Notes: a model not told the origin generated them from the letters alone. Counted from the stretch's first letter, positions 18,545 through 56,408 are shown. The stretch: DNA of 64,000 nt from an uncultured Gammaproteobacteria bacterium (GCA_964562445.1 CAZLSZ010000001.1:10755-74754), one strand, 5' to 3'. Numbers and translations are program-made.

Positions 18545-19021
18545 ATGGCAGAAGTAACACAGACACAAAAAAATAAAAAAACAAAGAAGGATTATACCTT
18601 TGCCGTGGGACGCCGCAAGGAAGCGGTTGCCCGTGTACGGTTATATGCTTCCGTTCCTGCGGATTTGAAGTGGGAAGAAGCTGAGATTAAGAAAGGTGAG
18701 ATGTATGTGAATGGCAAGCTCATTTCCGACTATTTCGGTGGAGATATCGCGCGTCATCAATATACTGAACCGCTTCGTATAACCAACGCGCATCAATTGA
18801 ATTATACGTTTACCATCAAAGTTGTCGGTGGAGGTCCTGCCGGCCAATTGCAGGCTGTTATCGCAGGTATTGCCAACGCGCTCAACAAAGTTGATCGCGA
18901 AAAGAACAGACCGACCCTCAAGAAAAAAGGATTCCTTACCCGTGATCCGCGCGTCCGTGAACGACGAAGTGTGGGTACCGGAGGGAAAGCACGCCGCAAG
19001 CGCCAATCACCAAAGCGCTAA
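18545..19021 (+). CDS. rpsI: 30S ribosomal protein S9
   Basis: AVGRRKEAVARVRL..., C-terminal GGKARRKRQSPKR. Confidence 0.95.
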   Translation: MAEVTQTQKNKKTKKDYTFAVGRRKEAVARVRLYASVPADLKWEEAEIKKGEMYVNGKLISDYFGGDIARHQYTEPLRITNAHQLNYTFTIKVVGGGPAGQLQAVIAGIANALNKVDREKNRPTLKKKGFLTRDPRVRERRSVGTGGKARRKRQSPKR

Positions 19022-19037
19022 AACATCTCTTTGTCAT

Positions 19038-19062
19038 CCTGAATCTGCTTTGCAGATGAAGG
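19038..19062. terminator. hairpin between convergent rpsI and GIY-YIG gene (weak bidirectional terminator; shares the gtcatcctgaa motif with the repeat family)
   Basis: atctgc-ttt-gcagat stem with flanking cctga/gaagg extension. Confidence 0.3.
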
Positions 19063-19099
19063 ATATCCCACGAATGTGGGGAATAATTACTCTCACATT

Positions 19100-19372
19100 T
19101 TATTCAGATAAATCTTTAAATTTGGGGTTACTATTTTTAATAAGTTCAATTTTTTTCTTTCGTGTCCACCCTTTGATTTTCTTTTCAGCAGCGATTGCAT
19201 CCTCTATATTATGGAATGTTTCGAGATAGACAAGTTTGTGAATATTGTATTTTGCCGTATAATCAGGGATCAACTTATTTTTGTGTTCATATAATCTTCG
19301 CTCAATATTATTGGTAACACCTGTGTAGAGCATATAAGATTTACTCGTCAAAATATATAAAAAATAGCCCAT
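19100..19372 (-). CDS. GIY-YIG nuclease family protein (YhbQ/UPF0213-like, 90 aa)
   Basis: GYFLYILTSKSYMLYTGVTNNIERRLYEH...E, a canonical GIY..YIG..R..E core. Confidence 0.85.
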   Translation of the reverse strand: MGYFLYILTSKSYMLYTGVTNNIERRLYEHKNKLIPDYTAKYNIHKLVYLETFHNIEDAIAAEKKIKGWTRKKKIELIKNSNPKFKDLSE

Positions 19373-19430
19373 TATATTATCATAATATATTTTATGTAAT
19401 GTATGCTACCTCGCATACGCGAGATATTAT

Positions 19431-19460
19431 TCGCCAGCTGAGCTTGCTCAGAATGACATT
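19431..19460. repeat. palindromic repeat-family member (cgccagctgagcttgctcagaatgaca)
   Basis: ctgagc-tt-gctcag stem followed by aatgaca. Related to cgccagctggcgg...aatgaca at 35533-35556. Confidence 0.4.
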
Positions 19461-19462
19461 TA

Positions 19463-20428
19463 CTATTTGAGGTCGATGATGGTGATTTCTTGTCTTTCAA
19501 TTTCTTTACTTTTTGCAAACCCTTCTTTTATGGCATCGCGAAATGCCTCCATGCTTTGATATCTTTCTTCAGGTTTGAATGCCAGAGCAGTATGGACAAC
19601 TTCTTCAATCGGCTCCAGATTTTTTGCCATATTGTCTTTTAATGAATCCTCAAATAACGGTGGTTTAGCCGTTAGATGCGCCATAGCGCTTGCAGCGCGT
19701 GTTATTCTGTTATAAGGATTTCTTCCCGTAAAAAGTTCATACCCTACTACTCCCAGCGAATAAATATCTCCTTCAGGCACGCTTATTATTTCTTCTTCGC
19801 TTCCCACTCGTTCATGAGGGACATATGCAGGCGTACCGTACGGGTCGTATTCATAATATGTTTTTTCACCTTTTTTTAGCTTTACGGCCATTCCCCAGTC
19901 GATAACTTTTATATTGGGTACTCCATTTTCTTCATGAAACAAAATATTATCGGGTTTGATATCCCGATGCAGAACGCCTTGCTGATGAGCGTATTCTATA
20001 CCTGCGGCAGTTTGCGCGAGAATGTGTACTCCGCAGTGAATACTTGCGCGTCCTTCGCGTTTTAATCTTTCTTTTACAGATTTTCCGTCAGCAAACCGCA
20101 TGGCGATATACGGATATTCTGCTTCACGATCATATTCAAATAAGTGAATAATGTGGCTATGGATAAGTTTTTGATGTATGAGGGCTTCATTATCAGCCTC
20201 CTGTAGAGGGTATTCGTTTTTAAATACTTTGAGCGCGACAGTATTTCCCGTGGTGGTATCAGTTCCTTTATAGACTTCGGCTGTCCCGCCTCTGCCGATC
20301 TTTTTCCCCAGGATAAATTTTTCATTGAATGTCCTGCCCGGAATTAATTCTTTCTTTTGCATAAAAAAGGGATTATAGTAGAGATTACCCCATTTTGCAA
20401 GGGATTGAGGGGTAAATATGATTGTCAT
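19463..20428 (-). CDS. Hanks-type serine/threonine protein kinase (soluble, kinase domain only)
   Basis: GRGGTAEVYKG...ALKVF (G-loop and VAIK-like), HRDIKPDNIL (catalytic loop), DWGMA (DFG variant), GTPAYVPHE. Confidence 0.9.
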   Translation of the reverse strand: MTIIFTPQSLAKWGNLYYNPFFMQKKELIPGRTFNEKFILGKKIGRGGTAEVYKGTDTTTGNTVALKVFKNEYPLQEADNEALIHQKLIHSHIIHLFEYDREAEYPYIAMRFADGKSVKERLKREGRASIHCGVHILAQTAAGIEYAHQQGVLHRDIKPDNILFHEENGVPNIKVIDWGMAVKLKKGEKTYYEYDPYGTPAYVPHERVGSEEEIISVPEGDIYSLGVVGYELFTGRNPYNRITRAASAMAHLTAKPPLFEDSLKDNMAKNLEPIEEVVHTALAFKPEERYQSMEAFRDAIKEGFAKSKEIERQEITIIDLK

Positions 20429-20492
20429 GCTGAACTTGTTTCGTCACCCTCGCGCCTGCCTGCTTGCAGGCAGGTTCGGAATGACAGGGAAT
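20424..20492. repeat. nested palindromic intergenic repeat (gtcatgctgaacttgtttcg ... cctgcctgcttgcaggcagg ... ttcggaatgacag)
   Basis: 9-bp GC-rich inverted repeat at 20455-20474. Flanking motifs are shared with copies at 32218-32332, 35254-35346 and 37077-37196. Confidence 0.55.
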
Positions 20493-20502
20493 GTGGGGGG
20501 CT

Positions 20503-21717
20503 TTAGCGGGAGGAGTGTTTGAGTGATTCGGCGGCGATACTCACGGATATTCCCAGTGCCATACCCAGAAGGATACCGATCAGCCCTGCGGAGAATTTTC
20601 CTCCTTCTTTTAATGTCGCCAGTATTTTTTCCCGTCGCTCTTTTCCTTCAGGAGTAGAGGCATCAAATTCGGGAAGCATATCCAGGAGGGAATTAAAGTC
20701 TCCTTTGGCGACCCCTTCTATTACGTCACGCGCTTTGCCGCTATCCAAATCCCCCTCCTGCGCTCTTTTGAAGTATTCATCCATCGGATCTTCTCCTTTT
20801 TCTCGTGCTTCTTCCATCATTTTGTCCATTTGATTTACCATGCCGAGTTCTTTTTCTGCCTGTTCCAGCCGGCGTTTTGCGATCTCGTCATCGGGGAATT
20901 TGGTAAGTATATCTTTTTGTTGGGTTATTTCAGCTCTGAGTGATGCCGCTTGTTTTTCAATTCCTGCCGGACCTACTCCCAGCACATCCATCATCGCGTG
21001 AAAGTCATCTTTGTCCAGAATCGTCTTGCCGTCAATCGCCTGCAATGCTTTGTCAGCATCTTCCCGATCAGGGTGCCCTTCCGGAACGGTTTTATCGATA
21101 ATAGCTCGCATATCTCCTGCGGTGAGCATACCTTTCTCGCGTGCAATCTTTTCTATCTGCGTACTCATCTCATCGGTCATCTCCGGTGTTTCCATACTGG
21201 GATCAATCGTATCCAGATATGTCTTTACAAATTCCCGCTCCTCTCCGGTAAATCCTGCTTCTATGGCTTGTCTTTCCGACACAAGATTCATTCCCATAAG
21301 TTCACTTGGTGGGATAGTCATATCATATCTTGCAGCATCATCGCGGCCTCCTTCTCCTTGTTTGATTACTTTGCATGTGTAATTCCCTTTATCATCGATC
21401 CCTGTTATCTGGTCGACGTAAACATCATACGTCTCTCCTGTGGTACTGTCTTCATAGGTTGTTGCCAGCGGATTACCTTTGTCAGTGCCTTCTGTCGTAG
21501 GGAATGCAAGGGGGCCATTGGCAAAGTATTCTTGTTTGGGTTCATAAAGCTGTTTTGAACCTCGTATCTTGGTTCCTGATTCGTCATTCTCTTGAGATTT
21601 TTTGTTAAAGACACTACTTGCTACCAGTCCTATTTCTTTTGATCGGCGAGCTTGCTGCTCGGGAGATACTTCGCTTTCTGTTCGGGGTGGTGCTGTCTGC
21701 TCTGCTGCTTCTGTCAT
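20503..21717 (-). CDS. hypothetical acidic protein with C-terminal transmembrane anchor (tail-anchored), co-directional upstream of the STK
   Basis: 404 aa, D/E-rich, with coiled-coil-like middle. C-terminus GGKFSAGLIGILLGMALGISVSIAAESL is hydrophobic. No recognisable catalytic motif. Confidence 0.6.
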   Translation of the reverse strand: MTEAAEQTAPPRTESEVSPEQQARRSKEIGLVASSVFNKKSQENDESGTKIRGSKQLYEPKQEYFANGPLAFPTTEGTDKGNPLATTYEDSTTGETYDVYVDQITGIDDKGNYTCKVIKQGEGGRDDAARYDMTIPPSELMGMNLVSERQAIEAGFTGEEREFVKTYLDTIDPSMETPEMTDEMSTQIEKIAREKGMLTAGDMRAIIDKTVPEGHPDREDADKALQAIDGKTILDKDDFHAMMDVLGVGPAGIEKQAASLRAEITQQKDILTKFPDDEIAKRRLEQAEKELGMVNQMDKMMEEAREKGEDPMDEYFKRAQEGDLDSGKARDVIEGVAKGDFNSLLDMLPEFDASTPEGKERREKILATLKEGGKFSAGLIGILLGMALGISVSIAAESLKHSSR

Positions 21718-21761
21718 ATTCTTAATATAGTTGAATAATCCCTATAAATCAACTAACATGA

Positions 21762-24377: not shown

Positions 24378-24722
24378 ATGAATACAGCAAAGGATGTAAT
24401 CAAATTATTACCGTTTAGCGAAACGTTCAAGAACGAACTGCTCGCTAAGTACGACCTGATGGATGAGGATCAGCAGGTGGCTGTACTGCGGGCGGTGTGG
24501 GATCTGTATGATGCCCTTTATGAAGTCACGCTTGATGAAAATCTCAAAGCGGCTGAACAGCGTGCGCTCAAGGACGAAGAAAAACTCGACGAAGACTTCT
24601 ATATGCGGGTACGCAAACAAACTGATCAGGACTTCCAAAAGTTTGTCAGTGAGTCCTCAGCAAACAGTGATCTTTCCACAGCACGGGAAGAATTACAGAA
24701 GATTCTTACACAATCCTCATAA
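24378..24722 (+). CDS. hypothetical small acidic protein (114 aa)
   Basis: ORF with strong coding character. No known motif. Confidence 0.5.
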   Translation: MNTAKDVIKLLPFSETFKNELLAKYDLMDEDQQVAVLRAVWDLYDALYEVTLDENLKAAEQRALKDEEKLDEDFYMRVRKQTDQDFQKFVSESSANSDLSTAREELQKILTQSS

Positions 24723-27159: not shown

Positions 27160-29562
27160 GTGGAAGGTGGAGAGCAAAAAGGCAATGCCCTCAAAAATGT
27201 AAAAGAGGGAGAAGATAATGATTATGGAAAAATGAGAGGTAAAATCAGTAGTTTAATAGACAAAGGTGCGAATATAGTTAATAGTATTAAAGATAAATTG
27301 AGTAGAGGTGAAGAAGATAGTGGAAATGTAGGAGGGGTAAAAAATAATAAAGAATCTTCCGTTACACCGAAAGCTGTTGAAGAGGTCTCTCCTCAATTTG
27401 AAGAATTTAATGCAGAGCATAGGGTAGATGAAGAGAAGAATGCGATAGAAGTCAGATCATATGGAGAATCAAATATAGGGGGCAGAGCACGAAATGAAGA
27501 TGCACATGGAACAAAGGGTAAAATCAGCTTTGCTGAGATTGGTGCAAATGGAACGTCAGATTCTGAAAAATATCAAATAATGGCAGAAATGCTGAATAAT
27601 GTAAAATTTGTAAATCCAAAAACGGGTGAAGAAGAATCATTTCAAACTTCAGGGGAATCAATAAAACAATTAGAAGAAAATCTGGGTAGTTATTTAGCGG
27701 AAGGTAAGCTAGGTAGTATTGATTTTGTAGCAGATGGAGCCGGCGGAGAAGGTAATGGTGAAGAAGCTAGTAGTATCGCTGGATTAGGTTTTTCTTATGC
27801 AATTGCTGAGGCAGTATCTCAAGGCGAAGACATTACACAAGATACAGTTCGTGAAGCTGTCATGTACGCACATAATTTAATCGTAGGGTATAACCTCCAA
27901 GATGATAAAAAGAAAGGAGCTTCCACATTTATTGCTTCAGTGACCAATAGTAAGGGGCAAACATATGTCGCTTCAGTAGGTGATTCTCGTGTCTATAAGC
28001 AAGATAGTGAAGGAAATGTTGTTCGAATCACAGAAGATCAGAGTCCTATGGAAGGTTGGGTTCAAAACGAGAGGAAGCAAATAAAAGTTGAAAAAAGAAA
28101 AGAAAATAGAGAATTTCAGTATCATGAATCCTTTACTGATATAGATAAAATTTGGGTTTCAAAACAGCTGGGTGGACGTGTTACAGAAGAATTAAGGGAA
28201 TCAGATATTCAAATATATGGAATGACTGTGGATAACCAAGAAAAATTGTTTTTAGTCTGCGATGGTGTTTGGGAAGGTATAAATCTCGCAGATAAAAATG
28301 TAAATGATGTATTACAAGAAGCCAGTAGAAAATACAAAACAAGCTTAGAACTTAAGGTATCTCCATTATTAGCAAAAAATTTTGCGGATGGGTTTGTGTT
28401 TAAAGAGGTAAATTTAAAAGGGACAGAGGGTATGTCGGCTGAAGAGTTATCCAAACATTTAACACGGCGAGAAGTTGGGGATTGGAGTAGGGATAATGTA
28501 ACAGCTGTGGTGGTAGAGAAAAGTAATAAAGTAATTCAAGAAAACGCGGATGATAAAGATAAAGAAGTAGTCTTTGACGAAATGCACTCTTCAGTATCAA
28601 TTGATGATGATGTAGAGAAAGATAATAATGGCAGTAAAATAAATGGAATAGAAAATTTAACAAAAACAAATGAGTATAAGGGCTGCAGACTTACATGGGA
28701 TAGACCTGAAGATACTGCATTAATGCCATATCATATGAAAGATATGGATGGTGAGTCTGTTCCTTATGTAAGAGCTGAAAGAATTTATAGGGAACTAGAA
28801 AAGTCTCAAATTGTTAATGAAGGTTCTACCCAAATATTATTAGGTTTTGGGTCTCAAGATCGTATACTAGAAATGGATAGATTTTCTTATAGACCTACAG
28901 CTTCTCTCTACTCAATATTTAGTGGATTCGGATGGCAATCTTCTGTCTCTGACTACGCTAAACAAGATTTTGAGTCATTTGTAAGGATGAGTTTGAGAGG
29001 TGGGAGTTCATCTGTTCAGGAAGCGCTTAGTGATTCTTTTACTGGAATGCATGAATATATGCGAAGTCTTAGGAAAATAAATAAGGAATCAGGCAGTTCA
29101 GCTCTTGTAGCATTTGTTACTAATAAAAAATTATATATCGCAAATGCAGGAGATTCTCGTGCAGTTATAGGTTCAGAAGGAAAGGCGATACGATTATCTA
29201 AAGATCATACACCAGATGATCCTGAAGAAAGACAAAGAATTGAATCAACAGGCAAGAAAGTTACTAAAACAGCAGGAGATATATATCGTGTTAATGATGT
29301 ATTGCCTGTATCGAGAGCATTAGGCTATTATGAAGCAGAAGTTAGCCCAGAACCGACCATAAAGACATACGAATTGGAAGGGAAAAAGGAAAGACTAATT
29401 CTTGCATCAAAAACATTATGGAATGTGATGAGTGATCAAGATGCTTTGGATTTAATTAAAGACACCTCTGATAGTAAAAAAGCATCAGAAGTATTGGCTC
29501 AAAAAGCAAAAGAATTGGGGAGTAAAGGAGATATCTCTGTAATCGTGGTAGATTTTAAATAA
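27160..29562 (+). CDS. tandem PP2C-family (PPM) Ser/Thr phosphatase, 800 aa; second domain degenerate at metal-binding Asp positions
   Basis: Domain 1: GGRARNEDAHG, FVADGAGGEG, ASVGDSRVY, LVCDGVWEG, DNVTAVVVE. Domain 2: LVAFVTNKKLYIANAGDSRAV, LSKDHTPDDPEERQRIE, VSRALGYYE, but SKTLWN replaces DGLWD and no DGHGG is present. The track start is a GTG; the frame is open a further 219 nt upstream with no start codon. Confidence 0.8.
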   Translation: MEGGEQKGNALKNVKEGEDNDYGKMRGKISSLIDKGANIVNSIKDKLSRGEEDSGNVGGVKNNKESSVTPKAVEEVSPQFEEFNAEHRVDEEKNAIEVRSYGESNIGGRARNEDAHGTKGKISFAEIGANGTSDSEKYQIMAEMLNNVKFVNPKTGEEESFQTSGESIKQLEENLGSYLAEGKLGSIDFVADGAGGEGNGEEASSIAGLGFSYAIAEAVSQGEDITQDTVREAVMYAHNLIVGYNLQDDKKKGASTFIASVTNSKGQTYVASVGDSRVYKQDSEGNVVRITEDQSPMEGWVQNERKQIKVEKRKENREFQYHESFTDIDKIWVSKQLGGRVTEELRESDIQIYGMTVDNQEKLFLVCDGVWEGINLADKNVNDVLQEASRKYKTSLELKVSPLLAKNFADGFVFKEVNLKGTEGMSAEELSKHLTRREVGDWSRDNVTAVVVEKSNKVIQENADDKDKEVVFDEMHSSVSIDDDVEKDNNGSKINGIENLTKTNEYKGCRLTWDRPEDTALMPYHMKDMDGESVPYVRAERIYRELEKSQIVNEGSTQILLGFGSQDRILEMDRFSYRPTASLYSIFSGFGWQSSVSDYAKQDFESFVRMSLRGGSSSVQEALSDSFTGMHEYMRSLRKINKESGSSALVAFVTNKKLYIANAGDSRAVIGSEGKAIRLSKDHTPDDPEERQRIESTGKKVTKTAGDIYRVNDVLPVSRALGYYEAEVSPEPTIKTYELEGKKERLILASKTLWNVMSDQDALDLIKDTSDSKKASEVLAQKAKELGSKGDISVIVVDFK

Positions 29563-32217: not shown

Positions 32218-32332
32218 GTCATTCTGGCTCTGTCCAGAATCGATTCTGGAGCCTGCCTGCCGGCAGGCAGGTTCTCACTTCGTTCGTCCCCAGAATGACA
32301 AGAGAGAGATGCTTAAACGAGTTCAGCATGAC
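32218..32332. repeat. nested palindromic intergenic repeat (gtcattctgg..ccagaatgaca inverted repeat enclosing cctgcctgccggcaggcagg; plus gtcatgctgaactcgt in reverse)
   Basis: Outer inverted repeat 32218-27 / 32290-32300, inner 10-bp palindrome at 32252-71, third motif at 32321-32. Near-identical outer element at 37134-37196. Confidence 0.6.
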
Positions 32333-35245: not shown

Positions 35246-35253
35246 TTATGCAG

Positions 35254-35346
35254 TCATCCTGAACTTGTTTCAGGATCTCTTATTGAATTCTTGTACTTTG
35301 CATCGGCAAAGTACCAAAACCCTGCCTGCCGGCAGGCAGGTCTCGA
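35254..35346. repeat. palindromic repeat-family members in the 318-bp convergent spacer (gtcatcctgaacttgtttcaggat; gtactttg..caaagtac; cctgcctgccggcaggcagg)
   Basis: Perfect inverted repeats at 35254-77, 35293-35314 and 35321-40. Further GC-rich palindromes at 35385-35405 (cgggggaag..cttccccc), 35405-19 and 35533-46 (ccgccagctggcgg). Confidence 0.55.
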
Positions 35347-36213: not shown

Positions 36214-37041
36214 TTACGGCAAAATGTAGAGATCCTGATTGTATCCGCTCGTTCCGACATATTCGGCTTCTTTCCGGATAATTGCCTCAAAAGGTCTGCA
36301 GGAAAAACAACCATTTTTCGGACAGATGAAATCATTATTTTCTCTTGCTGTTTTTACTTTCTTAGCGGCATCAAAAATAAGCTCGTAGGACTTTTCAAGT
36401 GAAGGAAGTGTAATCTCAAATGGTTCATTATCCCGATCGAGATACCAATAACTTCCTTTGCTTGCTTTTTTAGATTGGCAGCGGTCAACAATAAGGGTAT
36501 ACGCGGGAAGCTGCAGGGACGTGATCGATTCATCATTTTTTCCTGTTTTAAAGTCGATGATATGGACGGTATCACTTTCAGGAAGATATTCGAGCCAGTC
36601 GATCTTGCCGCAAAGAATAATATTTTCCTCTTCTGACAGAAAAAAATATGGCAGCTCTTTTTTGATCTTTATTGCTTTATTGAGGAGCGGACCGGGGTGT
36701 TTCATGACGCGTTCCAACATTTTTCTTCCTCGCTCTTTGACGTGTTCTTCCTGTTCTTTATTTTGAAAACCTCCGAGTTTCCCAGTCACTTTTTGCCAGG
36801 CTTCTTCATACTGTCCGATGAGAGATTTTGTGAAGCGCTGGTCTGCCGGAACGACAGATAATGCTTCAAGCACCTCATGGACTGTCTGTCCCAATGCTAA
36901 AGCAGGCGAAACAATATTTACCTTATGTCGGGTAATGGGGTCTTTATACATATTCCTTAGAAAATAAAGGCGTGGACAGCTGAGGAAATCATTGATGGAT
37001 GAGTTGGATACCCAAACAGCTTTGTAAATGTCTTTGGTCAT
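36214..37041 (-). CDS. PD-(D/E)XK nuclease, Cas4/RecB-like with Fe-S Cys cluster (standalone; not CRISPR-associated here)
   Basis: N-terminal Cys (SCPRLYFL), IIDFKTGK (D..K motif), QLPAYTLIV (QxxxY), C-terminal CPKNGCFSCRPF. Confidence 0.7.
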   Translation of the reverse strand: MTKDIYKAVWVSNSSINDFLSCPRLYFLRNMYKDPITRHKVNIVSPALALGQTVHEVLEALSVVPADQRFTKSLIGQYEEAWQKVTGKLGGFQNKEQEEHVKERGRKMLERVMKHPGPLLNKAIKIKKELPYFFLSEEENIILCGKIDWLEYLPESDTVHIIDFKTGKNDESITSLQLPAYTLIVDRCQSKKASKGSYWYLDRDNEPFEITLPSLEKSYELIFDAAKKVKTARENNDFICPKNGCFSCRPFEAIIRKEAEYVGTSGYNQDLYILP

Positions 37042-37076: not shown

Positions 37077-37196
37077 GTCATGCTGAATTCATTTCAGCAT
37101 CTCTCCCAAAAAATGTAACACTAACATTAATCCGTCATTCTGGCTTGTCCAGAATCGATTCTGGAGTCCTCACGTCGTTCGTCTCCAGAATGACAT
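37077..37196. repeat. nested palindromic intergenic repeat (gtcatgctgaattcatttcagcat + gtcattctggcttgtccagaatcgattctggag..ccagaatgaca)
   Basis: Inverted repeats at 37077-37100 and 37134-43 / 37184-94. About 90% identical to the outer element at 32218-32300 but without the inner cctgcctgcc palindrome. Confidence 0.6.
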
Positions 37197-51503: not shown

Positions 51504-54416
51504 TTACTTATGTGAACTGTTGCAAAGCATACTATATTCGCATGTTTTGCAGATGATTGATCCGCTGCATGTGAAGCTGCTTTTTGAGATTTCATCTACT
51601 TTTTGAACGATATATTCCTTTGCTTCCTCCAATTGTTCAGGTGTTCTGGTAGTTGAAACTTTTTTATTTTCTTCCAGGTAATATAATGTGAGAAGCACAT
51701 CCTCAGGTTTTTTATGAAGTAACGCATCATTTACCTCAGTTGCGGCGATACCGTAAAGAGACAACTGTAAATCGTCTTTTGCTTTTTTTTCAGTGAGTAC
51801 ATTTTTTCCAGTTTTATAATCAATAATTTCTATTTTTCCATTGGGAAGCCGGTCAATGCGATCAATTCTTCCGCTTATTTTTAATTTACCGATCATAAAA
51901 GAAAACGGCATTTCAACAGTCGCGACAGGCGGGATATTCTTTATATTCTCTTGCGCAAGTTTTGTTACCATCCGAAGTGCCTGTGTATATGTTTGTTCTT
52001 CATGTTGCTTGCTGGTATATCCGGCCGATACCCAATTTGTTTTCAGATAATTCTCCATGTCTTCGCGGCTGGCTGTGCTATTTTGTTTAAGATCTTGGAA
52101 GAAGTCTCTCAATGCTCCGTGTACACTTACTCCATAGCTGAGAGCAGGAGAGGGTTGAGACGGCATATTGAGAATATATCGGAGTTTGTAATGCAATGGA
52201 CAGGTAAGATATGTCTGTAATTGTGAGTACGAAATATAGGTAATATCCAGCGGTTCCCGTATCTCTTTTTCAGGAATTTTCTCTTCCACGATATTTGTAT
52301 TGAACACGTCAAGGAGTGAAAGCTGCTGTGCATCAGCTGCTACTGTTTGTTTTTTTATCAGCTGATGCACAGTAGCCTCTCCTAATGTTTCAGTAACAAA
52401 CGGTGACAATTTACGTTCCCGTTTGCCTTCATTATAAAAACGCGCTGCTGTTAGGTAGAGTTTTTCTTTTGCACGAGTGATCGCGACATAGAAAAGTCGT
52501 CTCTCTTCTTGGATTCCTTCATCTCCTTCCGGAAGCGCTTCACGGATAATATCGGGTGGAAGAGGAATTTGTTCTTTTCTGTCTCTACTTGGAAATCTCT
52601 GCGCGACGAGATTAACCACAAAAACATACGGAAATTCAAGTCCTTTGCTTGAATGCACAGTCAGAATATTGACGGCGTTATTGCGTGTCCAGTCCATCTC
52701 CGCCGCAAGCGGACTTTCCCCAAGTTCCATAGCTAGATCAATCCAGTCAACCACTGCAAAGACAGAAATATCTTTTTTATTGTGGGAATATGTTTGCAGT
52801 TTATTAAAAAATTTCGCGATATTTTGCGCTTCATTTTCTGTTTTGAGAGAACCGGGATCCAAATAATGTCCTAAGAGTCCGCTTTCCTCAAAAAATTGAT
52901 ACAGAATCTGCCCCGCGGATTCATGCGGCACGAGTTCAAGATGCTTTTTCAGCATTGTGATAAGAGATATAATTTTTTCTTTACCTTCTTTTGTCAGCAT
53001 TGTTTCCTCAACCTTTTCCATCGCTTCAAAAAGTGTTATATTACTTTGTTTTGAAAAATTCAGCATCGCTGATATATCACGTGCTTGTAGCGCGAAAATC
53101 GGCATCGTCATTACTCTATAGAGAGAAGATGTGTCTTCAAAGTTTGCCAATACATGTAAGTAGGCGATAAGATCTTTTATCTCTTCCTGTTGGTAGAGAT
53201 GATCCGGTCCGAGAAATTGAAATGGGATATGTAATCGATCCAGTGCTCTTTTAAATGGAATTGCGTGATCATTAGCACGGACAAGAATCGCGAAATCATT
53301 GTATGGACGATGTGTTTTTTTCACTTCTTTTTGTATTTCTTTGGCGACTCGTTCCGCTTCATCTTCTCCTCGCGCTTCATAGATAAATTCTATTTGTTCT
53401 CCTTTCTCTCCACGCATACCGATAAGTTTTTTATCTATTTTTTCTTTAATCTCTAGCCTGTCGGGATTATTTTGTTGGATAAGCGTATATGCCGCGTCCA
53501 AAATATTTTGTGTAGAACGATAATTTTTTGTCAAAGCGATAATTTTGCATCCGGGGAAGTGCGAGCGAAATTGCATCATATTTGCGATTGCTGCTCCTCT
53601 CCACCGATAAATACTTTGATCATCATCTCCCACGACTGTTATATTTTTCCGTTGTCCTGCCAGAAGAATTGCCATTTCGTTTTGGGCGAAATTTGTATCC
53701 TGAAATTCATCTACGAAAACATATTGAAATTGTCGCTGGTATTGTTTGAGTACTGACGGACGTTCCCGAAATAATTTCAGCGTATTGCTGATAAGATCCG
53801 AATAATCCATAACGCCTTCTTTTGCTTTCAGATCAGCGTACATCGTAAATGTCTGCGCGAGCTCCATGATTTTTTGTTTTTCGTCATCTTCAATCGTCTT
53901 ATCTTTCATGATACGATTTGCGTACGCGATGTATTGCTCCGGAGTTATGTCATCATCCCGCAGTCTGCTGAAATGTGTGAGCATTCCTTGGAGAAATTTT
54001 GTAGGATTTCCGAATGGACGAAAATATGATAGGTTGAAATCAAACAAATGTTTTCGCATAAAAAGTAAACATTCTGCTTCAGACATCAGCGTGAACGATC
54101 CGTTGAGACCGATATGAATGGCGTTTTGTCGCAAGACTCTGTCACAAAATGCATGGAATGTTTCTATCCAAAGTGTTGCGTACCCATACGGAAGGATTTC
54201 GTCAATTCTGCTTTCCATCTCCTGTGCTGCTTTATCAGTAAAGGTGAGCGCAAGGATATTTGACGGAGGAATATTTTTTTCAAGGATAAGGTGTTCTATA
54301 CGTTTGGTAACGACAGTTGTTTTCCCTGTCCCCGCGCCGGCAATAATGAGTAATGGATCGGTACCATGTGTCACTGCTGCTTGTTGTTCTTTATTGAGTG
54401 AGGATATATCGGGCAT
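51504..54416 (-). CDS. UvrD/PcrA-family SF1 helicase fused to C-terminal Cas4/RecB-type Fe-S PD-(D/E)XK nuclease (AddA/AdnB-like helicase-nuclease)
   Basis: Helicase motifs: IIAGAGTGKTT (I), VFVDEFQDTN (II), TKNYRSTQNIL (IV), VHSSKGLEFPYVFV (V), LFYVAITRAKEKLYL (VI). Nuclease: CPLHYKL, EIIDYKTGK, LQLSLYG, CSGSIICKTCEYSMLC. Confidence 0.85.
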   Translation of the reverse strand: MPDISSLNKEQQAAVTHGTDPLLIIAGAGTGKTTVVTKRIEHLILEKNIPPSNILALTFTDKAAQEMESRIDEILPYGYATLWIETFHAFCDRVLRQNAIHIGLNGSFTLMSEAECLLFMRKHLFDFNLSYFRPFGNPTKFLQGMLTHFSRLRDDDITPEQYIAYANRIMKDKTIEDDEKQKIMELAQTFTMYADLKAKEGVMDYSDLISNTLKLFRERPSVLKQYQRQFQYVFVDEFQDTNFAQNEMAILLAGQRKNITVVGDDDQSIYRWRGAAIANMMQFRSHFPGCKIIALTKNYRSTQNILDAAYTLIQQNNPDRLEIKEKIDKKLIGMRGEKGEQIEFIYEARGEDEAERVAKEIQKEVKKTHRPYNDFAILVRANDHAIPFKRALDRLHIPFQFLGPDHLYQQEEIKDLIAYLHVLANFEDTSSLYRVMTMPIFALQARDISAMLNFSKQSNITLFEAMEKVEETMLTKEGKEKIISLITMLKKHLELVPHESAGQILYQFFEESGLLGHYLDPGSLKTENEAQNIAKFFNKLQTYSHNKKDISVFAVVDWIDLAMELGESPLAAEMDWTRNNAVNILTVHSSKGLEFPYVFVVNLVAQRFPSRDRKEQIPLPPDIIREALPEGDEGIQEERRLFYVAITRAKEKLYLTAARFYNEGKRERKLSPFVTETLGEATVHQLIKKQTVAADAQQLSLLDVFNTNIVEEKIPEKEIREPLDITYISYSQLQTYLTCPLHYKLRYILNMPSQPSPALSYGVSVHGALRDFFQDLKQNSTASREDMENYLKTNWVSAGYTSKQHEEQTYTQALRMVTKLAQENIKNIPPVATVEMPFSFMIGKLKISGRIDRIDRLPNGKIEIIDYKTGKNVLTEKKAKDDLQLSLYGIAATEVNDALLHKKPEDVLLTLYYLEENKKVSTTRTPEQLEEAKEYIVQKVDEISKSSFTCSGSIICKTCEYSMLCNSSHK

Positions 54417-54446: not shown

Positions 54447-56408
54447 TTGTATACTTATGTTATGGATATGTTGACAAATTTTTTTTGGGGAATTATTACT
54501 TTTTTTATGATTTTTGTAGGATCGATATTTTTTGTCATTATATTCGGAATCCTTTTATATAGAGTATTTTTGCGATTAAGATACAATAAGTTATTGAAAA
54601 AAAATTTAGAATCAAGAGAACGGTTAGTATTAGAAGTAAAAATATCAGAAAATAATGAAAGAAAAGAAGAGGGAATGGTAGCATTTCTTCGGTCACTCCA
54701 TAGATTTTTATCATCGGGTACAGTTATTAGTTTGGAGATAGTTTCGAGTAAACAATTTCTTTCTTATTATATAGTTACTACTAGAAATAAAAGACAAATT
54801 ATAGAATCTCAATTTTACGCTCAATTTCCCGATGCTGAGATTATGGAAGTAAAAGATTATCTTTCCCAATGGAAAGAAAATACCGAATATGCTGAACTTT
54901 CATATAAACAGCATAGCATGGCAGCATTAAAGAGCTACGAAAATAGTGATGAAGATATATTGAAAAATTTGTCAGCACTACTTGCCAAAAGTGACATGCA
55001 GGATGAGGTTGCAATTCAGTTGGTCATGGAAAGAATTGGAGCAAAGTCGATGAAACAAGGATTTTTTGCACTGTATTATAAAATTTTGAATTCATCAAAT
55101 GAGAGTAAAGCAACACAAAAATTATCACAGCATCTTTTTCTGGGGAAATTGCGTATTGCTTACACATCCCGTACAAAGCGTGAGGCGAGAATGAAATTAC
55201 ATACCTTTTTACCTATATTCAAGTCAGTAAAAAGTTCGAGTAATGAGCTCGTCAAAAAATCATCGTTTTTCCCCATTGTTCTTGCAAAAGCATTTGCGGC
55301 TCGAATATTTGAACAAGGAGATCTCTGGTCAATTCCGGAAATTGTTACACTCTATCATTTCCCGACAAAAGAAAATACATTTTCCAATGTAGTACGAGCT
55401 CATTCTAAAAGGGCTGCTCCACCTGATATCCTTCCTCGGGAAGGACAGTATCGGCCCGGGCAAATAGCATTAATTGGGGAAACAAATTACCGAAATGAAA
55501 AGATACCATTTGGTATTTTGGATGAAGACAGGAGAAGACATTTGTATGTTATCGGGAAAACAGGTGTTGGGAAAAGTCGATTTTTGGAATTATTGATGAT
55601 GAATGATATACAGCAGGAGAAGGGATTTTGTTTATTAGACCCTCATGGTGATTTGGCAGAAGCAGTCGTTAAACGTGTTCCTAAAAATCGTATCAAAGAT
55701 GTTGTATACGTAGATCCGTCGGATAGAGATTTTCCTATCGGGTTTAACCCATTGGAATATACAGATAATTATGAAAAAAGGCAGCATATCGCTTATTTTT
55801 TTATTGCGATATTTAAAAAATTATTTGCTTCTGACTGGAATGAACGAATGGAACACATTTTGCGAAATATTGTTCTTGCACTATTGGAGACACAGGATTC
55901 AAATGTCTTGGGTATAAATAGGATAATAACCGATACACAATATCGGCATAGGGTAATCAATCAGTTGCATGACCCTGTCGTTAAACAATTTTGGGCAAAT
56001 GAATTTTCATCGTGGAATGAACAATATTCGTCACAGGCAATAGTCCCGATCCTCAATAAAGTAGGGCAGTTTATCAGCAATCCTATCATCCGTAATATGG
56101 TTGGTCAGCAAAAAAATATGCTCGACTTTACGTCATTTATGAATGAAGGCAAGATTGTCATCCTGAATATTTCAAAGGGAAAACTTGGAGAAGATAATGC
56201 GGCATTATTGGGATCTATGTTTATTACCAAAATACAGCAAGCTGCTCTCTCACGGGCAAACATCTCTGAAGAAGAGCGAAAAGATTTTTATTTTTATATT
56301 GATGAATTCCAGAATTTTGCAACTGATGCCTTTCAATCAATTCTATCGGAATCCAGGAAATATCGACTCAATTTGACGATTGCGCATCAATATATAGATC
56401 AGCTATAA
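54447..56408 (+). CDS. TraG/VirD4-like (type IV coupling protein / FtsK-HerA superfamily) membrane-anchored P-loop ATPase, terminated by an in-frame TAA
   Basis: N-terminal TM helices. Walker A HLYVIGKTGVGKSRF. CLLDPHGDLAE (VirD4-like DPxGE). Walker B-like FYFYIDEFQNF. Ends ...TIAHQYIDQL immediately before the TAA. Confidence 0.7.
   Translation: MYTYVMDMLTNFFWGIITFFMIFVGSIFFVIIFGILLYRVFLRLRYNKLLKKNLESRERLVLEVKISENNERKEEGMVAFLRSLHRFLSSGTVISLEIVSSKQFLSYYIVTTRNKRQIIESQFYAQFPDAEIMEVKDYLSQWKENTEYAELSYKQHSMAALKSYENSDEDILKNLSALLAKSDMQDEVAIQLVMERIGAKSMKQGFFALYYKILNSSNESKATQKLSQHLFLGKLRIAYTSRTKREARMKLHTFLPIFKSVKSSSNELVKKSSFFPIVLAKAFAARIFEQGDLWSIPEIVTLYHFPTKENTFSNVVRAHSKRAAPPDILPREGQYRPGQIALIGETNYRNEKIPFGILDEDRRRHLYVIGKTGVGKSRFLELLMMNDIQQEKGFCLLDPHGDLAEAVVKRVPKNRIKDVVYVDPSDRDFPIGFNPLEYTDNYEKRQHIAYFFIAIFKKLFASDWNERMEHILRNIVLALLETQDSNVLGINRIITDTQYRHRVINQLHDPVVKQFWANEFSSWNEQYSSQAIVPILNKVGQFISNPIIRNMVGQQKNMLDFTSFMNEGKIVILNISKGKLGEDNAALLGSMFITKIQQAALSRANISEEERKDFYFYIDEFQNFATDAFQSILSESRKYRLNLTIAHQYIDQL

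Follow-up and report, generated by a model that had tools for sequence, protein, structure and literature searches.

We analysed three neighbouring minus-strand genes in a stretch of 64,000 nucleotides from an uncultured bacterium (GCA_964562445.1, CAZLSZ010000001.1:10755-74754; this whole stretch is called the window, and positions are counted from its first letter). The genes encode a 404-aa acidic protein with a C-terminal membrane anchor, a Hanks-type Ser/Thr kinase and a GIY-YIG nuclease. A preliminary description, made from the sequence of the window, had read them as one operon and had flagged the kinase and the GIY-YIG nuclease as a new pairing. Comparison with related loci led us to a different reading, to which we assign a probability of roughly 60%. 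In this reading, each of the three neighbouring genes has a history of its own and most likely a transcript of its own: a member of a conserved module, a kinase added within one subclade and an unrelated GIY-YIG gene. The kinase and the GIY-YIG protein are members of known families, and their pairing is not a system.

Conserved partners of the 404-aa gene

The genomic context was looked up for eleven members of the 404-aa family, and the contigs were annotated by phmmer and home-built profiles. Each of the 12 distinct lineages has the 404-like gene in divergent orientation to an orthologue of the giant gene, and an orthologue of 114-120 aa follows the giant gene in all nine lineages whose contig extends far enough. 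These two, the divergent giant gene and the 114-aa gene, are the true partners with which the 404-aa gene is conserved. The best-conserved member of this module is the 114-aa protein, which is 80-82% identical to its counterparts in close relatives. The giant protein (864 aa) combines a conserved domain at the N-terminus with a glycine-zipper segment and a long C-terminal helical part; no match was found when it was compared with the PDB by sequence. Its divergent position and its glycine-zipper character had already been described, and we recovered both, the latter as a weak match. The module is undescribed and narrowly distributed, being limited to a narrow clade of Levybacteria within the candidate phyla radiation (CPR). 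Among 67 loci of GTDB species representatives anchored on rpsI, no 404-family, giant, 114-aa or kinase gene was found; several of the closest contigs end just past rpsI and are uninformative. One of these loci (L058) has a convergent GIY-YIG gene about 1.2 kb after rpsI.

The 404-aa protein has a pI of 4.6, contains 20% Asp plus Glu and carries a single hydrophobic segment at residues 377-395 of 404. It had no match in Pfam, NCBIfam, PHROG or PADLOC. A word-indexed protein search returned a single homologue (44% identity), a rerun with a 27-sequence profile returned three proteins, and scanning JGI (Joint Genome Institute) metagenome contigs with the 404 alignment found nothing. The extent of the family became visible only by exhaustive profile search, which gave 81 cluster representatives at 50% identity, most of them 400-500 aa long and matching nearly end to end. 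All sequences of the 27-sequence alignment have the C-terminal hydrophobic tail. The protein resembles tail-anchored membrane proteins, with one hydrophobic helix in the last 30 residues, no N-terminal signal sequence and conservation of this layout across the family alignment. Tail-anchored proteins are a topological class and not a homologous family, and the class tells nothing of function.

A confident AlphaFold model built from the 27-sequence alignment (predicted local distance difference test 85.6, predicted template modelling score 0.79) has helices at the N-terminus, four strands that form a small beta domain (residues 85-135), a helical bundle and, at the C-terminus, a transmembrane helix. 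A fold search with this model revealed no known relative, and comparison of the 404 profile with the PDB by sequence gave designed helical proteins only. The acidic composition and the C-terminal anchor noted in the preliminary description were confirmed, and its wording "coiled-coil" is only loosely right in view of the modelled bundle and beta domain. Both the anchor (GxxxGxxxG) and segments of the giant partner have the character of a glycine zipper, which hints at an interaction embedded in the membrane.

Gene content between the 404-aa gene and rpsI

ORF calling (ORF, open reading frame) returned the three co-directional genes as they had been described, convergent on rpsI at the end of the ribosomal array. 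The gene content of this segment differs between relatives. In two lineages (L074 and L162) kinase and GIY-YIG gene are both missing, and nothing lies between the convergent 404-like gene and rpsI. Four of nine informative lineages have a Hanks kinase downstream of the 404-like gene, with one kinase in the window, two each in L002 and L073 and one long kinase in L076. A GIY-YIG gene is present downstream in two of the nine, the window and L002, and only there is the block of three intact. L073, with rpsI DNA 83% identical, stands about as near to the window as L002 does. It has the 404 gene followed by two kinases, the second of which ends 7 nt from the rpsI stop codon, and no GIY-YIG gene. 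Other genes lie downstream of the 404-like gene in L160, L161 and L071, in L160 a gene for prolyl-tRNA synthetase. The adjacency of 404-like gene and kinase is recurrent, but confined to one subclade. In the simplest relatives, no gene separates the 404 gene from the rpsI gene on which it converges; one or two soluble Hanks kinases would have been added between these genes in the subclade of the window.

If the tail-anchored protein, the kinase and the GIY-YIG protein formed one functional operon, for instance as a kinase-controlled nuclease tethered at the membrane, their common strand and the short distances between them (74 bp, or 140 bp from the corrected kinase start, and 90 bp) would be explained, as would the same order, with a duplicated kinase, in one relative (L002). 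We regard such a functional unit as very improbable. The GIY-YIG gene is missing from seven of the nine informative lineages, including L073, and a kinase was found at none of the 80 closest GIY-YIG loci. In L002 the gaps widen to 636 bp and 698 bp and are filled with repeats, the second one with a called 65-aa gene on the opposite strand. Furthermore, each of the three genes is preceded by a promoter-like site of its own, and its stop codon is followed by a hairpin. The synteny proposed as a check was found in this one close relative, where the 404 gene, two kinases and the GIY-YIG gene converge on rpsI, and the trio splits in wider sampling. Thus, kinase and GIY-YIG gene do not form a recurrent pairing.

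We compared the window with L002 at the protein level. Housekeeping proteins are 84-95% identical (S9 88%) and the 114-aa protein 80%, followed by the giant protein (49%), the GIY-YIG protein (48%), the 404-aa protein (44%) and the kinase (34%). In the DNA, L002 and L073 resemble the window throughout the ribosomal array; the similarity breaks off at the rpsI stop codon (19021-19022) and resumes within the 404 gene at about 21168-21608. This break marks the kinase/GIY-YIG segment as a hypervariable slot between conserved flanks. Directly after the ribosomal array, kinases, a minimal GIY-YIG nuclease and hairpins resembling repetitive extragenic palindromes (REP) turn over between organisms with about 90% identical housekeeping proteins. 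The GIY-YIG gene would have lodged, together with these repeats, in the hypervariable gap before rpsI, without functional tie to the kinase.

A slot of this kind could also be a defence hotspot after rpsI, which would hold a stand-alone anti-phage kinase (PD-T4-6 or Stk2-like) and a defence-related or selfish GIY-YIG gene, both unrelated to the 404/giant module. The variable content between conserved flanks, the presence of repeats and kinases that are 34-38% identical where S9 is 88-97% identical are in line with this idea. PADLOC also matched the kinase to PD-T4-6 (E=9e-60) and mad6 (E=8e-56). However, these matches cover the generic kinase core only; both are generic Hanks-kinase profiles, and scores are equal against PknB-type models (185.9 bits) and PknA and StkP structures. 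Against the NCBIfam MAD6 model the kinase scored 150, the cutoff being 460. No further defence genes were detected near the kinase, and the GIY-YIG protein had no PADLOC match. The 404-aa, giant and other module proteins diverge as fast as the kinase, which has stayed next to the 404 gene in four lineages with 404 proteins down to 27% identity. In addition, the window and L072 have genes for PP2C phosphatases at the opposite side of the module. We consider a defence hotspot to be quite unlikely.

Transcription signals

The region between the giant and the 404 gene is 44-54 bp long and conserved across lineages. It contains an inverted repeat, AGTTGAT-N12-TTCAACTA (window 21728-21754), which reads as two back-to-back -35-like hexamers (TTGATT or TTGAAT, one per strand). 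A -10-like hexamer lies 17 nt after each of them and ends 2-6 nt before the respective ATG. From this arrangement, giant and 404 genes would be driven by one compact bidirectional promoter, and the divergent mRNAs are predicted to be leaderless or near-leaderless. The motif is unique in the window (0 expected). It was present once in ten of the 161 loci fetched by then; all ten carry the giant/404 pair, and in nine the motif is located at the junction of the two genes. Positions in relatives include L002 8158-8184, L071 3778-3804 and L076 9964-9990.

Promoter-like sites were also observed before the kinase genes. All six kinase genes of the clade have TTGnnn or GTGACT, followed at 17-18 nt by a perfect TATAAT that ends 8-17 nt short of the ATG. 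After the stop codon of each gene of the trio there is a stable hairpin. These predicted promoters and hairpins speak for separate transcription of the 404 gene, the kinase gene and, probably, the GIY-YIG gene, with leaders that are very short or absent; the hairpins may end or stabilise the transcripts. The operon claim is doubtful for the same reasons.

The kinase

The kinase ORF matches Pkinase (PF00069) with E=2.4e-47 and 162 bits, the cutoff being 31.7, and the match spans profile positions 3-259 of 263. The protein comprises the catalytic domain only; it has no hydrophobic segment, so that it is soluble, as previously described. Translation most likely starts at M23 (ATG at 20362), which gives a protein of 299 aa. 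The upstream ATG at 20428 lies in a repeat copy, gene callers use the 299-aa form, among them that of the public record, and TTGCAA-17-TATAAT is located 9 nt before the M23 codon. The motifs GRGGTAEV, VALK (K45), E59, HRDIKPDN (D134, N139) and DWG (D155) were identified, and K45, E59, D134, N139 and D155 are invariant across the alignment of the clade kinases. The replacement of DFG by DWG, within VIDWGMAV, had been noted before. Trp takes the place of the Phe in three of six clade kinases (the window, the second kinase of L073 and L076) and in none of about 102 other homologues with a locatable motif. Eukaryotic CK2alpha carries DWG and is active; therefore, the substitution does not imply a pseudokinase.

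The best PDB matches were the kinase domains of PknA, StkP and PknB. As a possible assignment, the Stk1/PknB family of PASTA kinases was considered and rejected: the NCBIfam model (NF033483) gave 185.9 bits against a cutoff of 450 with the kinase domain alone matching, and there is neither a transmembrane segment nor a PASTA repeat. The systems formed by PknA, PknB or StkP and their PP2C partners (PstP, PhpP, Stp1) are similar to the window in several respects, namely a full Pkinase domain with its catalytic residues, a PP2C gene nearby and adjoining genes for envelope proteins, including a LysM protein. In contrast to these kinases, the kinase of the window has 299 aa, lacks a transmembrane segment and a PASTA or other sensor domain, and has DWG instead of DFG. 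Moreover, kinase and PP2C genes are not adjacent here and lie on opposite flanks of the module.

In L002 (10049-11824) and L073 (6367-8141) two kinases are arranged in tandem, 41-42 bp apart and each with its own promoter. Both paralogues have HGD in place of HRD (non-RD kinases), and the kinases of the window and L076 retain HRD. Overall the kinase of the window is closest to the first paralogue, and its C-terminal ITIIDLK fits the second.

The PP2C phosphatase and the proposed role of the kinase

The 800-aa protein has tandem PP2C domains. The second (residues 576-790) matches PP2C strongly; the first (residues 187-371) is a weaker match of the PP2C_2 type and may be degenerate. PP2C genes are found at the same position in L072, and no PP2C gene was seen beside the module in L074, L160 and L161, which have no kinase. 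The LysM protein, encoded between the module and the PP2C gene, has hydrophobic segments at residues 18-36 and 484-502 and homologues in L002 and L072. Since PP2C genes flank the module in the window and in L072, Ser/Thr phospho-control of the module is the likeliest role of the pair. Here, PP2C phosphatases encoded at the far end of the giant-gene array would act together with the kinase on module and LysM proteins. We infer that the likeliest role of the kinase is this reversible phosphorylation.

Alternatively, the kinase could be functionally unlinked to the module, just as the GIY-YIG gene is, and could have stayed at its insertion site while regulating, for example, general growth or division. 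The kinases have their own promoters and are present in one subclade only (four of nine lineages), and within this subclade gene order is conserved over tens of kb, the window and L076 being collinear for metK, Gmad2 and the module. These observations would all be expected from such inertia of the neighbourhood. However, in the window and L072 the module lies between kinase and PP2C genes, lineages in which it stands by itself have neither, and the kinases evolve at the pace of the module proteins and not like housekeeping genes. We judge a mere persistence of gene order to be rather unlikely.

Several findings weigh against our reading of the locus. The 404-kinase adjacency is limited to one subclade and could reflect inherited gene order and not function. 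Kinase and PP2C co-occur imperfectly and in few lineages: L076 has a kinase and no PP2C gene nearby, so that one of the four kinase lineages is without flanking PP2C, and another one is not informative. In the model, a nearly invariant threonine of the 404-aa protein, T199 of the GMLTxxD motif, resembles a helix N-cap. The hairpins after the stop codons have no U-tracts and are not canonical terminators (they were not called by a terminator scan), and read-through could co-transcribe all three genes. Finally, the GIY-YIG gene occupies the same position in the window and L002, and a single old insertion with rapid later divergence is no less possible than two insertions.

The GIY-YIG nuclease

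The 90-aa length and the family given for the nuclease in the preliminary description were confirmed, the family by Pfam (PF01541, 54.8 bits against a cutoff of 22.6, E=1.2e-14). The protein is a single minimal domain. Its sole PDB matches were the UPF0213 proteins 1zg2 (E=4e-7) and 1ywl (E=2e-5), covering residues 1-81. It shares with UPF0213/Slx1-like proteins (BH0048 1zg2, EF2693 1ywl, E. coli YhbQ) the length of about 90 aa, the single domain and the aligned GIY, YIG, Arg and Glu motifs. Slx1-family proteins of prokaryotes are minimal GIY-YIG domains without auxiliary domains (Dunin-Horkawicz et al. 2006, PMC1564403), and the GIY-YIG domain is mobile and tends to invade new loci (PMC1564403). 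The literature that we found gives no established biochemical function for the UPF0213/Slx1-like subgroup. In contrast to its UPF0213 relatives, the gene of the window is placed among hairpin repeats in a hypervariable gap, and the family is multi-copy on some metagenome contigs. A homing endonuclease of the I-TevI type was rejected; the protein has 90 aa and no extra domain, the gene is free-standing between genes, and no intron RNA was found with Rfam, the scan returning only a tRNA.

The 80 closest GIY-YIG loci, on JGI metagenome contigs with a total of 353 kb (30 of at least 5 kb), were searched for the neighbours seen in the window. None of these loci has a Hanks kinase, a 404-family gene or rpsI. 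The GIY-YIG protein of the window is 53-68% identical to these 80 relatives and 48% identical to its positional counterpart in L002. Copies on contigs without any other gene of the window reach 55-68% identity. A second or third GIY-YIG copy was detected within a few kb on six of the 80 contigs (L091, L102, L105, L142, L146 and L154), and two copies are only 85 bp apart in L091 (2688-3300). This is consistent with a multi-copy, possibly selfish family. The gene thus encodes a stand-alone UPF0213/Slx1-like nuclease that has no recurrent relation to kinases.

Hairpin repeats

The palindromic repeats described for the spacers were found in all three of them as GTCAT-anchored hairpins. The sequence GTCATYCYGA occurs five times in the window (0.45 expected; none of 100 shuffles reached five), and three of the five copies are in the three spacers of the trio. 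Each copy is the fixed end of an imperfect palindrome of the form GTCAT-stem-loop-stem-ATCTC, for example GTCATCCTGAACTTGTTTCAGGATCTC. Folding of the spacers gave z values of -2.3 to -3.4 overall: -22.8 kcal/mol on the plus strand (z -3.4; minus strand z -2.5) for 19022-19099, -19.5 kcal/mol (z -2.35) for 19373-19462 and -27.9 kcal/mol (z -3.06) for 20429-20502. Further copies in the window are located at 32218-32246, 32304-32332, 35253-35282, 37077-37106, 37134-37161 and 37153-37194. A gene for a stand-alone PD-(D/E)XK nuclease (36214-37041) adjoins the cluster at 37077-37194, and a fusion of UvrD helicase and PD-(D/E)XK nuclease (AddA/AddB-like, 970 aa) is encoded at 51504-54416.

In L002 (9440-9700 and 11900-12960), tandem arrays of 3-6 copies lie on both sides of the GIY-YIG gene, and copies also fill the 636-bp gap between 404 gene and kinase. 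The hairpin repeats are present in the window and L002 and absent from the same region in L072, L073, L074 and L076. Similar copies were observed on unrelated metagenome contigs (L096, L102, L105 and L134). Gene callers read the repeats as short spurious ORFs (CHPELVSGS, MLKQVQHDN).

Like REP elements and bacterial interspersed mosaic elements (BIME), the repeats are imperfect palindromes of about 27-45 nt with a fixed asymmetric end (GTCAT...ATCTC). They are also intergenic and dispersed, occur in both orientations and sometimes in tandem, and often stand directly after stop codons. In contrast to REPs of enterobacteria, to which their sequence is unrelated, they have no Rfam family and are weakly associated with GIY-YIG genes. 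A GIY-YIG-linked element, comparable to REPs and their associated tyrosine transposases (RAYT), was considered and is not claimed: a hairpin lies within 300 bp of the gene in only six of the 80 loci. Hairpin density is 0.30/kb within 100 bp of GIY-YIG genes and about 0.05/kb further off (5 and 14 matches), a difference that is confounded by the hairpins being intergenic. We found nothing relevant in the literature on GIY-YIG proteins with extragenic palindromes, on YhbQ or on COG2827. No RAYT-type transposase was seen within the 64 kb, where no dedicated search for one was made.

Layout of the locus and host

The features of the locus are listed in Table 1.

Table 1. Position of genes and signals at the locus, in window coordinates.
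Feature	Position	Strand	Remarks
rpsI (ribosomal protein S9)	18545..19021	+	final gene of the ribosomal/rpoA array; conserved left border of the variable segment
Convergent spacer rpsI/GIY-YIG	19022..19099	.	GTCAT hairpin repeat at about 19033-19064; small second hairpin at about 19067-19080
GIY-YIG gene, 90 aa	19100..19372	-	PF01541; UPF0213 / bacterial Slx1-like family
Spacer kinase/GIY-YIG	19373..19462	-	GTCAT repeat 19433-19457; second hairpin 19407-19426; AT-rich promoter-like sequence before the GIY-YIG ATG
Hanks-type Ser/Thr kinase, 299 aa	19463..20362 (ORF to 20428)	-	Pkinase; start of the gene caller
Promoter-like site of the kinase, TTGCAA-17-TATAAT	20372..20400	-	9 nt before the kinase ATG
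Spacer after the 404-aa gene	20429..20502	-	compound hairpin repeat 20442-20486; GTCAT copy in opposite orientation into 20424-20441
404-aa acidic tail-anchored protein	20503..21717	-	family by profile search; one arm of the divergent pair
Putative bidirectional control region, 44 bp	21718..21761	.	inverted repeat 21728-21754
Giant protein, 864 aa	21762..24356	+	weak Pfam glycine-zipper match; divergent from the 404-aa gene
114-aa acidic protein	24378..24722	+	orthologues follow the giant gene
LysM-domain membrane protein, 723 aa	24776..26947	+	LysM E=7e-9; same direction as the giant gene
800-aa protein, two PP2C domains	27160..29562	+	PP2C E=4e-54, two stretches; flank opposite the kinase

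The host genome belongs to the Levybacteria (Patescibacteria/CPR). The best match of the window S9 among GTDB species representatives is a metagenome-assembled genome of Levyibacteriota (69%). The public taxonomy of several CPR-like contigs looks wrong, as their ribosomal proteins and gene order fit Levybacteria/Microgenomates. Many rpsI loci carry the doubtful label "uncultured Gammaproteobacteria/Pseudomonadales", and a protein of L074 (GCA_035526025.1, DATLDE010000012.1) is labelled, also doubtfully, "Candidatus Limnocylindrales bacterium".

Genes related to type IV secretion systems (T4SS) were observed near the module in some lineages. In L161 (7715-11562) such genes directly follow the 404-like gene on the same strand (a weak PrgI match, a TraC-like gene and a VirB4-like ATPase). 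A T4SS_pilin gene is present near the module in two lineages (L161 372-770 and L074 1-288). The window has a gene for a TrwB/VirD4-like coupling protein at 54447-56408, distant from the module. L074 also has a PDDEXK_1 gene near the module.

Implications

A new system of kinase and GIY-YIG nuclease is not upheld, which saves follow-up effort on this pairing. The sequence provides evidence for sigma-70-type promoters so close to the ATG that mRNAs of this lineage should be leaderless or nearly so. A further-reaching interpretation, which we hold to be unlikely, is that the module constitutes a very fast-evolving, membrane-associated apparatus of this Levybacteria clade that would be switched, in the subclade of the window, by a Hanks kinase of the DWG type and a PP2C phosphatase acting as a dedicated pair. 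If this were true, the apparatus might be an episymbiont-host or cell-envelope interface under diversifying selection. The 404 family itself is a clearly bounded family of tail-anchored proteins in a CPR lineage, always paired with a small acidic protein and a giant one of the glycine-zipper kind, and it is a target for structure-complex prediction and for phosphoproteomics in enrichment cultures.

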